DNA of 64,000 nt. It comes from an uncultured Candidatus Saccharibacteria bacterium (GTDB lineage Bacteria > Patescibacteriota > Minisyncoccia > Phycocordibacterales > UBA9973). Positions 2,030 to 58,136 of this stretch are shown in pieces (within the stretch, counting starts at the first letter, position 1; every line of letters starts with the position of its first letter). The stretch is from contig CAZNZN010000001.1 in the NCBI GenBank assembly GCA_964577515.1, positions 876 to 64,875 of the forward strand, in the 5' to 3' direction. Position numbers and translations under genes: made by a program. The notes beneath the pieces were generated by a model. That model did no database searches. It worked only from the letters and a program-made list of their open reading frames with translations, and was not told the origin of the DNA.

Positions 2030-2374
2030 ATGACACGAGTAAAAGGAGGCGTCGTAGCCCTAAAAAAACGAAAAAATGTGCTTGCGATGACCAAAGGATA
2101 CCGCTTTGGACGATCAACAAAGACAGCACAAGCAACAGAAGCGATTGCACACGCAGGAACATACGCATTTGCACACCGACGTGACAAAAAAAGCGATAAG
2201 CGCCAACTCTGGCAAGTACGTATCAATGCTGCAGTTCGAGAACTTGGCATGAGCTACTCAAAGTTCATCGGTGCACTCAAAAAGACAAACATCGAACTCG
2301 ACCGAAAGATTCTCTCAGATATTGCGCACACAAACCCTGAAACATTCAAAAAAATCGTTTCAAAAATACAATAA
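2030..2374 (+). CDS. rplT: 50S ribosomal protein L20
   Basis: L20-like sequence (MTRVKGGVVALKKRKNVL...RRDKKSDKRQLWQVRINAA). Confidence 0.9.
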   Translation: MTRVKGGVVALKKRKNVLAMTKGYRFGRSTKTAQATEAIAHAGTYAFAHRRDKKSDKRQLWQVRINAAVRELGMSYSKFIGALKKTNIELDRKILSDIAHTNPETFKKIVSKIQ

Positions 2375-2376
2375 AT

Positions 2377-2405
2377 AAAAAACCTCTCATATGAGAGGTT
2401 TTTTA
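2377..2405. terminator. bidirectional intrinsic terminator shared by rplT and map
   Basis: Perfect palindrome AACCTCTCATATGAGAGGTT flanked by an A6 run and T-run. The map stop codon overlaps the T-run. Confidence 0.6.
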
Positions 2406-3164
2406 TTTCGTCAAAATTTCTGCTCCTGTTTCAGTGATGAGTACCGTATGTTCAAAATGTGCAGCTCGAGTCCCGTCTGCAGTCTTGTAAGTATACCCGT
2501 CTGCGGCAAGCACTACATCCTCCCCTCCAAGAGTAAACATGGGTTCTATCGCGATTACCATTCCAGGAACAAGCGCTTCCCCTTTTCCTGGCTTGCCAGT
2601 ATTTTGAACATAAGGGTCTTCATGAATATACCGTCCAACACCATGCCCTGAAAAACCATAGACAATACCTAGCCCCGCTTCTTCAGCAACTGATTGTATG
2701 GCGTATCCAATATCTCCGAGTCGTGCACCAGGAACGATAGCTTCTATACCTGCCTCAAGCGCTGTCTTTGTTGCGCTAAGAAGTTTTTTGTTTTTTGCAG
2801 AAATCTCTCCAACAGGAACAGTTACTGCGTGGTCGAGAAATACTCCTTCGTAGTTGAGCCCTAAATCAAGAGAGACAATATCTCCTTCTTTAAGGATTTT
2901 TTTTCCAGGGATACCGTGCACTACCTCACTATTCACTGACACACAAAGCGTTGAAGGATATGGAAATGTCGCCCCTTCCGGCTGGTAATCTAAAAACGCA
3001 GGAGTGTGCCCAGCTTTTTTGATACACTCGTATGCATATGCATCGAGCTCTGCTGTGCTTATCCCGGGTGCAACACGCTTTGCAACATCGCGCAAAATAG
3101 CAGCGAGGATAGGACCCCCTTTTTTCAATCGTGCTATTTCACTATCGGTTTTGATAATAATCAT
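2403..3164 (-). CDS. map: methionine aminopeptidase type I
   Basis: Type-I methionine aminopeptidase (MetAP) metal-ligand motifs: VVHGIP, DIVSLD, GHGVGRYIHE, IAIEPM. Confidence 0.9.
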   Translation of the reverse strand: MIIIKTDSEIARLKKGGPILAAILRDVAKRVAPGISTAELDAYAYECIKKAGHTPAFLDYQPEGATFPYPSTLCVSVNSEVVHGIPGKKILKEGDIVSLDLGLNYEGVFLDHAVTVPVGEISAKNKKLLSATKTALEAGIEAIVPGARLGDIGYAIQSVAEEAGLGIVYGFSGHGVGRYIHEDPYVQNTGKPGKGEALVPGMVIAIEPMFTLGGEDVVLAADGYTYKTADGTRAAHFEHTVLITETGAEILTK

Positions 3165-8478: not shown

Positions 8479-8522
8479 ATAAAGTAGTTTTGTCTGATAC
8501 TACAAGAAACCTCTAAAAAGTC

Positions 8523-8548
8523 AAAACCCTCTCATATGAGAGGGTTTT
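8523..8548. terminator. palindromic hairpin between rplE and the inserted gene
   Basis: AAAACCCTCTCATATGAGAGGGTTTT. Near-identical to the rplT/map terminator. Confidence 0.5.
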
Positions 8549-8559
8549 GTTAAAGAGTG

Positions 8560-26808: not shown

Positions 26809-27129
26809 TCAACAGTATCCTTTATCTAAAACAATCAATAAATCCTGAATAACAAGCCTAAACTGCTCCCATTGTTCATTTTTTGACTGGTCGTTATACC
26901 GTGGATGTTCTTTGAACCAACACTCAATAACATCTATTGGTTCAAGAGATAGTGCTCCTGCATAAGCGGAAAGCCTTGCTAGTGTCATATGAGCATGACC
27001 TCTTTCTATTTTGGAAAGAAATGAGCTAGAAATTCCCATTAGCTTCGCAAAATCTTTTCCTCGGCGTAACCCTTTTTTGATTCTAAGAGAAACAAGAACA
27101 TCACCTATACTACAAAGGTTTTTTTCCAT
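26809..27129 (-). CDS. XRE-family HTH transcriptional regulator
   Basis: Cro/C1-type helix-turn-helix (FAKLMGISSSFLSKIERG). Confidence 0.65.
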   Translation of the reverse strand: MEKNLCSIGDVLVSLRIKKGLRRGKDFAKLMGISSSFLSKIERGHAHMTLARLSAYAGALSLEPIDVIECWFKEHPRYNDQSKNEQWEQFRLVIQDLLIVLDKGYC

Positions 27130-27168
27130 AGTTATTTTTTAAAAAGAATACTAATGATTTCTATTTTG

Positions 27169-28806
27169 TCAAAAACTTTCCTGTATCCTCACTCGCACCC
27201 CTCCTTTCCAGCCAGCTTCGAGGGTGCCGATAAACGAGATTGTCGCACCAGGAACATATTGATTTTTCATTTCATCACCAACAAAAAAGGTAAACGCAGT
27301 AGCAATCCCTGTAGCATCGCGCACGACACACTCAAGGTGCTCTTTGTTTTTGCCGAACATCTTTGTACTAAGTATTTCGACATCCTCAAAAAGAAATCGT
27401 GGCTCAGGGTTCCCTACACCAAACGGCGCAAGCGCACGGAGCTTTTGTAGATGACGCATCGTTGCGATACCAAGTGGGAATGAAAGCGCATTCTCACTCT
27501 CGGTCGTATCTGCACTATGATCAACACGTTCAATTGCGGCGTTGAGCTCTTGTTCGAGAAAATGTATCTGCTCTTTTGCTACTGCGAACCCTCCTGCTGC
27601 TTGGTGCCCCCCTGCATGAAGCAACACTCCCTCGGGAAGTGCTTGAAAAAGATATGCAGCATGATGCTCGTCGAGCATGCGACATGATCCCTTGATGATA
27701 CCGTCTCCACTTTCGCCCCAAACAAAGAAACTCCGCTCATATGTTTCTTGGAGTTTGGTCGCAACGAGTCCGAGCACTGCTGGTCGCCACGTGAGATCTC
27801 CGAGGACAACAATCGGCGGGAGCTCCCGTGCTTCGAGTTTTTTGTGCGCTTCTTTGACGATACGAGCAACGAGTGTCTTTCGTTCGTTATTGATAGCTTC
27901 GAGTTTCTTGACGATTGCAAGCGCAGTGCTTGTATCTTCTGTTGCAAGGAGTTCAAACGCGAGCATTGGAGTGTCCATACGAGATGCCGCATTTAACCGC
28001 GGCGCAACAGAGAAGGTCAGATCGCTCTCGGTGAGTGTGTCGGGGTTCATATAGTTTTCAGCAAAGAGTGTGCGCAGACCGACGCGTCGAGTCTTTCGCA
28101 TGACGAGGATGCCGTAGGAAGCGAGCATTCTATTTTCTCCGACAAGTGGCACCATATCTGAAAGTGTTGCAAACCCGACTAAGTCGAGAAGCCATTTCTC
28201 CCACCCTTCTTTGATACCAAACTCATCGCGATGTTTTTCGAGAAATGCACAGACGAGATAAAACGCGACCCCCGCACCACAGGGATCACTGTTGGGGTAT
28301 GCACTCTTTTTTGGGTGGACCACTGCAAGCGCACTTGGAAGTTCGGCAAGAGGCTGGTGGTGATCAGTGATGATGACATCGATACCACGACTACGAGCAT
28401 CAGCTACTTCTGCAAGCGCGGTAATCCCGAGGTCTACAGTGATGATGAGCGTCACCTCTTGCGCTTCAAGCGCATCGAGTCCTCGAGTACTCATTCCATA
28501 CCCCTCATCGTGTCTATCAGGGATATATACATGGACTCGGTCAGCGCACCCTACTGCGCGAAAGAGATCGAGAAGGACAACTGCCCCTGGGATACCATCA
28601 CAGTCATAGTCTGCATAAATACCGAGACGCTCACCGTTTTTGATGGCAGTATAAATACGAGAGATAGCGGTGTGCATATCTTCAAAAAGCCAAAGGTCAC
28701 CGAGCGTGTACTCTGGGAAAAGAAACGGTTTCACTCCCGCTTCATCAATACCACGCGCTTCAAGGAGTAGTTTCTGAAATTCATCCGGAGTGGGAATAGT
28801 CTGCAT
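27169..28806 (-). CDS. recJ: single-stranded-DNA-specific exonuclease RecJ
   Basis: DHH (DYDCDG, ITDHH) plus DHHA1 (GGHQAAGG) motifs. Start taken as MQTIPTP. Confidence 0.85.
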   Translation of the reverse strand: MQTIPTPDEFQKLLLEARGIDEAGVKPFLFPEYTLGDLWLFEDMHTAISRIYTAIKNGERLGIYADYDCDGIPGAVVLLDLFRAVGCADRVHVYIPDRHDEGYGMSTRGLDALEAQEVTLIITVDLGITALAEVADARSRGIDVIITDHHQPLAELPSALAVVHPKKSAYPNSDPCGAGVAFYLVCAFLEKHRDEFGIKEGWEKWLLDLVGFATLSDMVPLVGENRMLASYGILVMRKTRRVGLRTLFAENYMNPDTLTESDLTFSVAPRLNAASRMDTPMLAFELLATEDTSTALAIVKKLEAINNERKTLVARIVKEAHKKLEARELPPIVVLGDLTWRPAVLGLVATKLQETYERSFFVWGESGDGIIKGSCRMLDEHHAAYLFQALPEGVLLHAGGHQAAGGFAVAKEQIHFLEQELNAAIERVDHSADTTESENALSFPLGIATMRHLQKLRALAPFGVGNPEPRFLFEDVEILSTKMFGKNKEHLECVVRDATGIATAFTFFVGDEMKNQYVPGATISFIGTLEAGWKGGVRVRIQESF

Positions 28807-28841
28807 GCCAAGAAGTGTACCATGGTACACTTCTTGGCATG
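28804..28841. repeat. 38-bp perfect palindrome spanning the divergent recJ and HIT start codons
   Basis: CATGCCAAGAAGTGTACCATGGTACACTTCTTGGCATG. Confidence 0.9.
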
Positions 28842-29249
28842 GAAAAAACGATATTTCAAAAAATCATTGCTCGAGAAATCCCAGCAATTATTGTCTATGA
28901 AGACGACCGATGTGTGGCAATACTCGACATCAGTCCTATCAACCCAGGCCACACCCTTGTTATTCCTCGCGACCCTTACAAAAATATTTTTGAACTCCCA
29001 AAAGAGTTACTCGCACACCTCTTTTCAGTAGTACAAAAAATTGCAGGAGTACAGAAAAGTGCACTAGGTGCTGATGGTGTAAACATCATTATGAACAACG
29101 ATGCCGCAGCAGGGCAAGTAGTTTTCCATGCACATATCCATGTCATCCCTCGATACACTGGGGACGGTTACGAACATTGGCACAGCAAACGTCCCTACAA
29201 CGAAGGTGAAGCAGACCTTATTGCAGAAAAAATTAAAAATGCATTATAA
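28839..29249 (+). CDS. HIT-family (histidine triad) hydrolase
   Basis: HAHIHVIPR histidine triad. Start taken as MEKTIFQ. Confidence 0.8.
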   Translation: MEKTIFQKIIAREIPAIIVYEDDRCVAILDISPINPGHTLVIPRDPYKNIFELPKELLAHLFSVVQKIAGVQKSALGADGVNIIMNNDAAAGQVVFHAHIHVIPRYTGDGYEHWHSKRPYNEGEADLIAEKIKNAL

Positions 29250-56189: not shown

Positions 56190-56260
56190 TGCGAGTACGG
56201 GGAATCGAACCCCGGTCTCAACCTTGGGAAGGTCGCATTCTACCACTAAACCATACTCGC
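56190..56260 (-). tRNA. tRNA-Gly (anticodon CCC), no encoded CCA
   Basis: Cloverleaf folded by hand: acceptor GCGAGTA/TACTCGC, anticodon stem CGACC/GGTTG, loop TTCCCAA, T-loop GGTTCGATTCC. Confidence 0.8.
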
Positions 56261-56344
56261 AAATGCCCTGTGGCACTATTTTACTCCCCTTTTATCAAAA
56301 ACAAAAATACTCTAGAAAATCTCTTCTAGAGTATTTTTGTTTTG

Positions 56345-56415
56345 TGCGGGATAGGGGAATCGGACTCCTGCTCTCAGTTTGGAAAACTGATGTTCTACCA
56401 TTAAACTAATCCCGC
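56345..56415 (-). tRNA. tRNA-Gly (anticodon TCC), no encoded CCA
   Basis: Acceptor GCGGGAT/ATCCCGC, anticodon stem TCAGT/ACTGA, loop TTTCCAA, T-loop AGTCCGATTCC. Confidence 0.8.
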
Positions 56416-56484
56416 GTATTGTTATCTTAACAAAAAGTCGTTCAAAATCAAAGACTTTTTAGGGGCGCTATTTTAAACCCTAAG

Positions 56485-56557
56485 TCGGGGTGCCGGGATT
56501 CGAACCCGGAGTCACCTGTTCCCAAAACAGGCATGTTAGCCGTTACACCACACCCCG
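56485..56557 (-). tRNA. tRNA-Pro (anticodon TGG), no encoded CCA
   Basis: Acceptor CGGGGTG/CACCCCG, D-loop with GG, anticodon stem CCTGT/ACAGG, loop TTTGGGA (G37), T-arm CCGGGTTCGAATCCCGG. Confidence 0.8.
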
Positions 56558-56639
56558 ACTTAGCTTTCAAAGACCCAGCACTATTCGTATAGGAAAGTAC
56601 GAAGCACACTATACTACAAATCCTCTCGATTTACCAGAG

Positions 56640-56996
56640 TTACTCAATGTCAAAAATCTCCACAATAGATCCCTGCCCTGAGAGAAGCACCACAATCCCC
56701 TGTATACGGTAATGAGAAATCTTTTTTGTTGCTACATAATACTGCGCAGATACATACACCTTCTGCATTTTTTGTTTTGTCAGGTTTTCTGCTGGGTTTA
56801 TCAAACCTCCCTGTTTCCCTGTCTTTACCTCAAAAAAATACCAAGTAATCCCTTTTTTCGCGACAACGTCAATCTCTCCATATCGATTGGCGACATTTCG
56901 CTCAATAACAACGAAGCCATTCTTTTTGAGGAAATCGCAGGCAGCACTCTCTCCTAGCTCCCCAATTTTTTGTGTTTTAGAAGTAAAATGTTTCAC
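56640..56996 (-). CDS. yraN: YraN-family (UPF0102) endonuclease-like protein
   Basis: GELGESAACDFLKKNGFVVIERNVANRYGEIDVVAKK...FFEVKTGK matches the YraN pattern. Confidence 0.7.
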   Translation of the reverse strand: MKHFTSKTQKIGELGESAACDFLKKNGFVVIERNVANRYGEIDVVAKKGITWYFFEVKTGKQGGLINPAENLTKQKMQKVYVSAQYYVATKKISHYRIQGIVVLLSGQGSIVEIFDIE

Positions 56997-57267
56997 GTGA
57001 AACGTCTCCCCTCTCTTGTTTCATATGAAACAAATTAGGGCTTATGTACAAAGGTTTTTTAGCAACAAATCATAAGGACACTTCTAGTATACGCCATAAA
57101 AAGGCGTCTGTTATCCTATCTACACACACACTTATCCACAGTTTTGTCAAAAAAACTGAAAAATAAGGTGAAAAACAACATATACGACGCCTTTTGTCTA
57201 AAAGACGTCTCATAGCATGGTGCGTACCTATATAAAAAGCCCCTTATCAGGGACTTTTTATATTTTG

Positions 57268-57338
57268 TGCGGCTACAGAGAATCGAACTCTGGTCTCGTC
57301 CTTGGCAAGGACGCATTCTACCACTAAACCATAACCGC
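57268..57338 (-). tRNA. tRNA-Gly (anticodon GCC), no encoded CCA
   Basis: Acceptor GCGGTTA/TAGCCGC, anticodon stem CGTCC/GGACG, loop TTGCCAA, T-loop AGTTCGATTCT. Confidence 0.8.
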
Positions 57339-57998
57339 TTATTCAAAGTTTTCATCCTGCGCTAAAGAAATCCATTTCATGATCTTTTTCTTTAAAACAG
57401 TACTTGAGATTATACTCATACCAGTACCATATTGCAATCTCCCAACCTCCTCCTTCCCCTTAATGATCTGAGTTTTATAAAACTGTTCTCTGGAAATACC
57501 TAAAAGGTTCGCCCACACTTCCTTGCACAAGGATTCGTTCAAAGCAGAAGAGATACTTAGACATACCCGCAACTTCTCCCTTGAAATACCTAGATATTTC
57601 AAGGAAAAAGCTAAAAAAATCTTATGGAGAGAAAAGTCGGTATTTGTAATCCTTACAAAATGTCTTGACTGCCTATCTCCTTCTCCTGCATAAATCATAA
57701 GCCCTGCCCAAAATAAGGGGTCTTTTCGATATAGTTGGTACTCTTTCTCCGCTTCTTTTTCAACAAGAGCATACTGGTACTGCAACTTAAGTTTCCGTAC
57801 CATGTTCATCCGCTCCATCCGTTCTTTTGAACCGCCTATATTTTTTTTGGAATGTTCTGAAGAAAGCTGTTTTGACCATTCTTCCCCCTTAAACCAGGTA
57901 GAAAGTGTTGCACGTGAAACTCCCGTATCGCGGTGTATTTCTCGGTAGGTTCTTCCCTCTCTACGCAATTGGAATATTCTTTGCTTATCAGGTCTCAT
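57339..57998 (-). CDS. HTH-domain protein with a LAGLIDADG-like motif (possible homing-endonuclease relic)
   Basis: N-terminal HTH (TYREIHRDTGVSRATLSTWFK) and FWAGLMIYAGEGD (LAGLIDGDG-like). The stop codon abuts the 5' end of tRNA-Gly(GCC). Confidence 0.35.
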   Translation of the reverse strand: MRPDKQRIFQLRREGRTYREIHRDTGVSRATLSTWFKGEEWSKQLSSEHSKKNIGGSKERMERMNMVRKLKLQYQYALVEKEAEKEYQLYRKDPLFWAGLMIYAGEGDRQSRHFVRITNTDFSLHKIFLAFSLKYLGISREKLRVCLSISSALNESLCKEVWANLLGISREQFYKTQIIKGKEEVGRLQYGTGMSIISSTVLKKKIMKWISLAQDENFE

Positions 57999-58064
57999 TA
58001 TTTATAAGTATAATACGACGGTTTTATTTTACAAATCTAACGTCTTGTACTATTATTAAGACAC

Positions 58065-58136
58065 GCACCTATGGTGAAATGGATATCACAGCGGTCTTCG
58101 GAACCGTTATTCTGGGTTCGAGTCCTGGTAGGTGCA
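58065..58136 (+). tRNA. tRNA-Arg (anticodon TCG), no encoded CCA
   Basis: Acceptor GCACCTA/TAGGTGC, D-stem GTGA/TCAC, anticodon stem GCGGT/ACCGT, loop CTTCGGA, T-loop GGTTCGAGTCC. Confidence 0.75.

Follow-up and report, generated by a model that had tools for sequence, protein, structure and literature searches.

Two divergent genes, recJ and a gene for a HIT-family hydrolase, lie head to head in the 64,000-nucleotide stretch of contig CAZNZN010000001.1 (assembly GCA_964577515.1) that was analysed here and that is called the window in the following. The short region between them forms, together with both start codons, a perfect palindrome of 38 bp. This sequence, CATGCCAAGAAGTGTACCATGGTACACTTCTTGGCATG (window 28804..28841), is identical to its own reverse complement. 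An inverted-repeat search describes it as two arms of 19 nt each, which are 100% complementary and separated by a spacer of 0 nt, and the symmetry ends at 28803/28842 (g/g). The features of the locus, with the basis of each assignment in brackets, are the following:

27169..28806, minus strand: recJ, single-strand-specific DNA exonuclease, 545 aa from the ATG at 28806 (Pfam DHH, DHHA1 and RecJ_OB; homologs)
28804..28841, no strand: perfect palindrome, comprising the entire 32-bp recJ/HIT intergenic region and both start codons
28804..28806, minus strand: ATG of recJ (CAT on the plus strand) and predicted transcription start of a leaderless mRNA (homolog N-termini, tblastn)
28807..28813, minus strand: spacer TCTTGGC, 7 nt, from the -10 hexamer to the recJ ATG, no Shine-Dalgarno site (sequence read)
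28814..28822, minus strand: predicted extended -10 element of recJ, with TG at 28822-1, G, and TACACT at 28819-14 (mirror of the HIT element; homology to relatives)
28823..28831, plus strand: predicted extended -10 element of HIT, with TG at 28823-4, G, and TACACT at 28826-31 (sequence read)
28832..28838, plus strand: spacer TCTTGGC, 7 nt, from the -10 hexamer to the HIT ATG, no Shine-Dalgarno site (sequence read)
28839..28841, plus strand: ATG of HIT and predicted transcription start of a leaderless mRNA (profiles, gene calls, homolog N-termini)
28839..29249, plus strand: HIT-family hydrolase gene, 136 aa (Pfam HIT, E = 1.4e-31; homologs)

The palindrome is present as the first-pass annotation of the window had described it. 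The 38 bases recur unchanged, between the same two flanks, in eight contigs that come from independent ENA assemblies; one of them, L008, has a nearby T/C single nucleotide polymorphism, and in none of the eight does the palindrome show any decay. Chimeric reads can produce perfect palindromes without a spacer, but a fold-back chimera is ruled out for practical purposes, because the eight contigs stem from independent samples and two assemblers and because the flanks are two different, intact and conserved genes and not inverted duplicates. The first-pass annotation had also proposed a search for other copies. At up to 3 mismatches, the 64-kb window contains two copies of the half-site, namely the two arms themselves (0 of 100 shuffles reached two), and neither the core nor the half-site occurs anywhere else in it. 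Copies of the core or half-site were likewise not found in viral contigs.

Start codons of recJ and the HIT gene

The outer CAT/ATG triplets of the palindrome are the true start codons of recJ and HIT, with 32 bp between them, because the starts of the Pfam profiles and the N-termini of the homologs coincide there. The first-pass annotation had considered them the most plausible starts, and this proved correct. On the HIT side, the HIT and DcpS_C profiles start directly after the methionine at 28839, the gene is called from 28839 in all assemblies and the homologs have the N-terminus MEKTIFQKII. On the recJ side, approximately 70 RecJ homologs open with M(x)xTIPTPDE, which corresponds to the methionine at 28806, and tblastn alignments begin at query residues 1-3. 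It had also been pointed out that internal GTG codons allow both open reading frames (ORFs) to begin further upstream, with the residues MYHGTLLGM. These readings do exist as alternative extensions of the ORFs, and the extension is part of one RecJ model in the databases (P0001, 553 aa). An overlap of the two genes at their 5' ends, which had been offered as another option, is argued against by the homolog N-termini.

Over-extended N-termini are frequent in the database RecJ models of this group (P0001, P0003, P0004, P0006 and others). Examples are MYHGTLLGM, which corresponds to window 28815..28830, and MLQSGSM or MVQSWSM elsewhere, which derive from ATGTTACAATCTGGGTCTATG. These models appear to be over-extended because the gene caller read through the predicted promoter, and start-codon annotation in this phylum would therefore benefit from a model that allows for leaderless genes. 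A different situation is seen in one relative (L179, 2880-3000), whose recJ has 17 extra in-frame codons (TPQTKLDTKEQVLYGA) between a promoter-proximal ATG and the conserved MPTIPTPDEF. These codons represent either an N-terminal extension or a 51-nt leader in an otherwise leaderless-looking lineage.

Predicted promoter elements within the palindrome

According to the first-pass annotation, start codons at these positions would leave no intergenic space for a promoter. This part of it does not stand, since the 32 bases accommodate two abutting sequences of the extended -10 type, each 7 nt from its ATG. Either strand of the palindrome reads TG-G-TACACT-TCTTGGC-ATG. The two TG motifs thereby meet in the central CATG, and the start codons lie in the outer CATGs. 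The recJ element is homologous to the recJ promoter TGnTACAAT of the relatives. Extended -10 promoters can function without a -35 element, and for this reason 32 bp would be sufficient for two promoters. A standard sigma-70 scan, which looks for a -35 plus a -10 box, gave no match in the palindrome; this is expected for extended -10 promoters and was therefore not counted against them. On the basis of this anatomy, the palindrome is probably a minimal two-way promoter that is composed of two abutting, outward-facing extended -10 elements, one for recJ and one for HIT.

The position of the putative -10 elements relative to the start codons agrees with what is seen elsewhere in the window. At a distance of 6, 7 or 8 nt downstream of the motif TGNTANNNT, an ATG that begins an ORF of at least 80 aa is found 4, 7 and 4 times, respectively (15 cases in total), compared to a background of approximately 0.6 per offset at offsets of 12-30 nt. 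More generally, an extended -10 box TGnTAnnnT is located 6-8 nt 5' of the ATG at many genes of this genome, which is a signature of mRNAs without a 5' leader. Shine-Dalgarno-like sites are rare in the window (16 of 79 ORFs) and are missing from recJ and HIT, where no GGAG, GAGG, AGGA or AAGG occurs at -16..-4. Leaderless transcription in bacteria is recognised by a Pribnow box at a distance of 6-8 nt from the gene start (PMC6028130). At the palindrome, a -10-like TAnnnT at 6-8 nt, the lack of a Shine-Dalgarno site and a genome-wide signal at gene starts are found together.

Relatives of the locus were sought in genome contigs, metagenome contigs and by protein searches. The closest genomes are metagenome-assembled genomes of Paceibacterota / Patescibacteria, members of the candidate phyla radiation (CPR), with RecJ identities of up to 80%. 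The divergent recJ/HIT pair is widespread among them and is kept in most of approximately 80 Paceibacterota species (loci L009-L175), which points to a functional connection of the 5'-3' exonuclease with the HIT hydrolase. The same slot is filled in different lineages by two types of HIT proteins (HAHIHVIPR and VPHFHIHLIPS) that are about 40% identical.

In the 44 junctions where the two divergent genes are directly adjacent, a TANNNT is present 5-9 nt before the ATG in 34/44 cases on the recJ side and in 44/44 cases on the HIT side. In the position profile of these junctions, the recJ side shows TGnTAnAAT at -16..-8 and the HIT side shows TAnAnT at -12..-7. In short junctions, a -10 hexamer is located 6-8 nt upstream of each start codon, often with a TGn extension, as in L010 (CAT-AATTCTT-ATTTTA-C-CA-TTA-TG-T-TACAAT-CTGGGTCT-ATG) and L022 (CAT-GCATAG-AGTATA-TG-G-TAGAAT-TTGACCC-ATG). 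Three junctions (L013, L016, L175) have the same abutting 38-bp layout as the window, with AnnnTAnCA joined directly to TGnTAnnnT, and 7-14 of the 19 arm positions are complementary in them. Two relatives that possess the HIT type of the window and an adjacent pair (L179 and L089, with 73% and 68% HIT identity) have a 42-bp version of the junction, in which both promoters read TGnTACAAT and the spacers differ (AGCCCGT before HIT, TTTGGTCT before recJ). A perfect palindrome was found in 0/44 adjacent junctions and is also absent from L179 and L089. Judged by these comparisons, the arrangement of start codon, 6-8 nt and -10 box on both strands is ancestral at the recJ/HIT junction; the perfect symmetry is not and belongs to one species only.

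If the two elements work as their geometry suggests, RNA polymerase bound in one orientation would initiate the HIT mRNA at A28839 or an adjacent base, and polymerase bound in the other orientation would do the same for the recJ mRNA at 28806 or an adjacent base. Neither message would have a 5' leader or a Shine-Dalgarno site. The two polymerase footprints would overlap completely, so that only one direction could fire at a time and transcription of recJ and HIT would be mutually exclusive, as has been described for symmetric bidirectional promoters (PMC12825309). The symmetry of -10 elements often makes promoters of bacteria bidirectional, and a polymerase bound in one direction excludes binding in the other (bioRxiv 10.1101/2020.01.31.928960; PMC12825309). 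We infer the transcription start sites, the leaderless translation and the mutual exclusion of the two orientations from the geometry of the elements.

Some observations speak against such a promoter. The hexamer TACACT matches TATAAT less well than the TACAAT of the relatives. The TANNNT counts are to be read against control windows at other offsets, where 8-26 of the 44 junctions contain this motif; the values of 22-26/44 are reached at d = 11-15 in AT-rich junctions and are partly due to the opposing box. Finally, our literature search found no published report of leaderless transcription for this phylum.

If the two-way promoter is real, 38 bases would be enough in a very small genome for two complete promoters together with two translation starts. 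Such compactness would be possible because an extended -10 promoter needs no -35 box and a leaderless mRNA needs no ribosome-binding site. The signals described above also support, at the level of the sequence, a common use of leaderless transcription in a Paceibacterota genome.

Origin of the perfect symmetry

The promoter function alone does not account for a perfect palindrome. In each arm, 8 of the 19 positions are functionally symmetric (the ATG, the TG, and T, A and T of the -10 hexamer). The remaining 11 positions are complementary as well, for which the chance probability is approximately 3e-7, and the symmetry thus needs an explanation apart from the promoters. A clue is provided by the sequence of the arm, TGGTACACTTCTTGGCATG, which is identical at 17 of 19 positions to the recJ side (promoter and spacer) of L179 and L089, as compared to 11-12 of 19 positions for their HIT side. 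Across 19 relatives, the mean alignment score of the arm is 3.7 with the recJ side and -0.4 with the HIT side. The spacer TCTTGGC resembles the recJ-side spacer of the relatives (CTTGGTCT), unlike their HIT-side spacers (AGCCCGT, TACCCT). Both arms are therefore of the recJ type, and the HIT side has the appearance of the recJ promoter and spacer copied in reverse orientation.

The recJ-side promoter and its spacer were most likely copied, with inversion, onto the HIT side, probably by template switching, i.e. by hairpin-templated synthesis, at a pre-existing imperfect palindrome of 38-42 bp. Template switching is known to turn imperfect palindromes into perfect ones (PMC7202029). Its reported effects further include homogenised arms and inverted spacers of inverted repeats (PMC8604942), the building of hairpins (PMC8794818) and the shaping of promoters (PMC13100816). 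Relatives have an imperfect inverted repeat at the orthologous site, the donor arm can be identified as the recJ side, and a spacer inversion exists at the same junction in sister species (L170 compared to L171, L172 and L174). We therefore lean slightly towards the view that the perfect symmetry is the product of a template switch, a recent copying accident in a single species. The junction would then be an apparent natural case in which the copying of an inverted repeat has put HIT under an exact copy of the recJ promoter, which fits recent proposals of template switching as a source of promoter evolution.

Against this origin stands the distance of the available relatives. The nearest ones with an adjacent pair have only 73% HIT and 78% RecJ identity; above these values, no adjacent pair was found besides near-identical strains, and the closer HIT relatives (86-89%) carry an inserted gene. 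Since only end states could be compared and no close intermediate was found, the template switch stays an inference. Furthermore, a neutral perfect palindrome is expected to decay, and its perfection could also reflect selection.

The junctions of other relatives are labile in length (38, 42 or approximately 137 bp, or with inserted genes). In the closest HIT relatives (86-89%), the extra ORF lies between HIT and recJ (L009 1946-2587; L176 1525-2154; L177 456-911). It encodes 209-213 aa in L009 and L176, with no Pfam hit on record in L176, and L177 has a different ORF of 151 aa, also with no hit on record. Quasi-palindromic junctions of 136-139 bp occur in L170 (1365-1503), L171 (1368-1503), L172 (692-827) and L174 (429-565). 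Their inverted arms of 23-25 nt carry the -10 boxes of both genes and enclose a conserved centre of about 70 nt (AAAAAGCACGGATATTTC...CTCGAGCTC...), which is inverted in L170 relative to L171, L172 and L174; the alignment score of the L170 centre with the others is 35 as reverse complement and -5 in direct orientation. No Rfam match was obtained in these long-form junctions. Possible explanations for the centre are an invertible segment, a gene for a small RNA and the product of a template switch.

A selected symmetry would be the basis of a 'coin-flip' promoter, in which polymerase binds equally well in both orientations, perhaps with extrusion of a cruciform under negative supercoiling or the binding of a dimeric factor, and in which the ratio of the DNA-repair exonuclease RecJ to the HIT hydrolase is fixed or the two are expressed exclusively, in a supercoiling-sensitive manner. 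The lack of decay in all eight contigs is compatible with the 'coin-flip' promoter, which we regard as unlikely. If it were true, a reduced CPR genome would possess a regulatory device of minimal size at this junction.

It is similarly unlikely that the palindrome is an operator, at which a dimeric regulator co-represses recJ and HIT and which is kept symmetric by selection. The first-pass annotation had taken a perfect palindrome of this length to imply selection, for instance as a dimeric regulator site, and had named the adjacent XRE regulator (26809..27129) as candidate binder. Helix-turn-helix (HTH) dimers typically bind palindromes overlapping promoters. The symmetry indeed exceeds the needs of two promoters by the 11 free positions (p ~3e-7), the XRE gene is located 40 bp downstream of recJ on the same strand, and XRE was found only in the species of the window and in one other lineage, apart from a weak 30% match in L022. 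However, the comparison with this other lineage weakens the case. The sole informative XRE homolog (P0122, 70% identity, in L173) is encoded in the same recJ-XRE-rnhA order, and its recognition helix is nearly identical to that of the XRE of the window (SFLSKIERGH vs SFLSKMERGH). L173 and L174 represent one organism, as the RecJ protein P0016 from L174 is 100% identical to that of L173 over 195 shared aa. The junction of this organism, found on L174, is of the 137-bp form and has no 8-mer in common with the palindrome. Conversely, L175 has the 38-bp layout without XRE. Site and regulator thus do not occur together across genomes, and the palindrome is missing from all 44 adjacent junctions, although these relatives keep the gene pair; the first-pass annotation had itself named such an absence as a refutation of its reading. 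Nor does the half-site occur a second time in the 64 kb, near XRE or elsewhere, or in viral contigs. At 38 bp, the palindrome is about twice as long as a usual HTH operator, and both arms go back to the sequence of the recJ promoter rather than to a separate motif. The region upstream of XRE has no sequence related to the palindrome and contains a conserved promoter-like TTGACA-N16-TAYTCT of its own (window 27130..27175, minus strand; L173 588-628). This TTGACA overlaps the stop codon of recJ, and XRE is thus probably transcribed from a separate promoter, with a short leader.

A hairpin in the RNA at each 5' end, as had also been suggested in the first-pass annotation, is very improbable. It presupposes distant promoters inside the opposite genes, so that each message would begin with a stem of -31.6 kcal/mol that hides the start codon or stabilises the mRNA. 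The predicted RNA hairpin is indeed stable for its composition (z = -7.1), and a weak minus-strand sigma-70-like match exists within HIT at 29117..29088; but the two promoter-like matches found compare to 1.5 expected in shuffled sequence. Moreover, the hairpin would bury both ATGs, with no Shine-Dalgarno site present, the palindrome has no Rfam match, and relatives with the same pair have no stable hairpin and keep the -10 geometry. The palindrome would also be untranscribed if transcription starts at the ATGs, as the two-way promoter predicts.

Equally remote is a structural or recombination element, such as a cruciform, a dif/Xer-like or invertase site, the end of a mobile element, or a collection of restriction-modification targets (CCATGG, GTAC, CATG). 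The DNA hairpin has a predicted energy of -18.2 kcal/mol (z = -8.6) and the junction is evolutionarily labile, with the length forms, inserted genes and inverted spacer described above. Against this, the element is present as a single copy only, the GC skew has no turning point at the palindrome, which argues against a replication terminus or dif site, and there is no restriction-site bias (observed/expected 0.94 for CATG and 0.90 for GTAC; 12 vs 12.1 CCATGG sites). In addition, the arms are accounted for base by base by promoter, spacer and start codon. A recombination breakpoint at the palindrome was considered for L003 (HIT 100%, RecJ 75% identical) and rejected, since this contig diverges from the window about 650 bp away, inside recJ. 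L003 is identical to the window from approximately 28150 rightwards, i.e. over the palindrome, HIT and PGK, and leftwards in recJ it is about 50% identical (window 27550..28150). Either recombination at the strain level or a chimeric contig would account for this.

The palindrome was also rejected as an intrinsic terminator, a repetitive extragenic palindromic (REP) element or a miniature inverted-repeat transposable element (MITE), as it has no T-run, is not called by a terminator scan, is single-copy and is sited between two 5' ends. Perfect palindromes with arms of at least 13 nt number about 75 in 1.04 Mb of related loci; nearly all of these are terminator-like, and only the one between recJ and HIT spans two start codons. 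One other palindrome ends in CAT...ATG (L070, 8273..8303), but it follows a stop codon, lies outside the ORF of the facing gene and is located between convergent genes, and was therefore discarded.

Comparison with known systems and further palindromes

In its main traits the junction corresponds to the leaderless-gene promoters of GeneMarkS-2 'group C', known for example from Mycobacterium and Deinococcus (PMC6028130), with a TAnnnT 6-8 nt before the ATG, no Shine-Dalgarno site and a genome-wide enrichment at first genes. It differs from them in that the host belongs to the Paceibacterota (CPR), that the elements are mostly of the extended TGn type and that two units, both oriented outwards, take up the entire intergenic region.

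There are also parallels to the bidirectional promoters described by Warman et al. (bioRxiv 10.1101/2020.01.31.928960; PMC12825309). These are pseudo-symmetric, match a -10 element on both strands and have a divergent layout, and exclusive orientations are predicted for the palindrome as well. Symmetric bidirectional promoters are often used for mRNA production (bioRxiv 10.1101/2020.01.31.928960; PMC12825309). However, in the published cases the divergent start sites are 7-25 bp apart, mostly 18 bp, and the -10 hexamers are shared or overlapping (bioRxiv 10.1101/2020.01.31.928960). The hexamers of the palindrome fall outside this definition, as they are separate (28814-19 and 28826-31) and 6 bp apart, with CCATGG as the two TGn motifs between them. 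The predicted start sites are 33 bp apart, at both start codons, and the symmetry is perfect over 38 bp.

With the template switching at quasipalindromes (PMC7202029; PMC8604942; PMC8794818; PMC13100816), the locus shares an imperfect repeat in relatives that is perfect here, clustered changes by which one arm exactly complements the other, and a spacer inversion in sister lineages. In contrast to the published cases, the event proposed here is deduced between species, and the converted tract would comprise a promoter and the 5' spacer of the neighbouring gene, leaving HIT on a copy of the recJ promoter. To XRE/Cro operators over divergent promoters, e.g. in phage immunity regions, the likeness consists in a palindrome between divergent genes and a nearby XRE-family gene. 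Here, however, XRE lies outside the divergent pair, the relative with the XRE ortholog does not have the palindrome, and there is a single 38-bp copy. Taken with these similarities and differences, the palindrome is an extreme form of mechanisms that are already known and does not constitute a system of a new kind.

The window contains a second perfect spacer-less palindrome of 36 bp at 2373..2408, with the halves AAATAAAAAACCTCTCAT and ATGAGAGGTTTTTTATTT. It is located between convergent ORFs and resembles a two-way terminator, and its related core CCCTCTCATATGAGAGGG recurs at 8522..8549. In more distant relatives, a palindrome of 27-31 bp, AACTTGAnnTCGCAAATTGCGAnnTCAAGTT, occurs in several copies per locus (L072 1228-1685, L087 2154-2596, L109 753-880, L078 3350-3380) and looks like a repeat family or an operator array. 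Apart from these palindromes, five tRNA genes are present at 56190..58136 of the window, four of them on the minus strand (56190-57338) and one on the plus strand (58065-58136).

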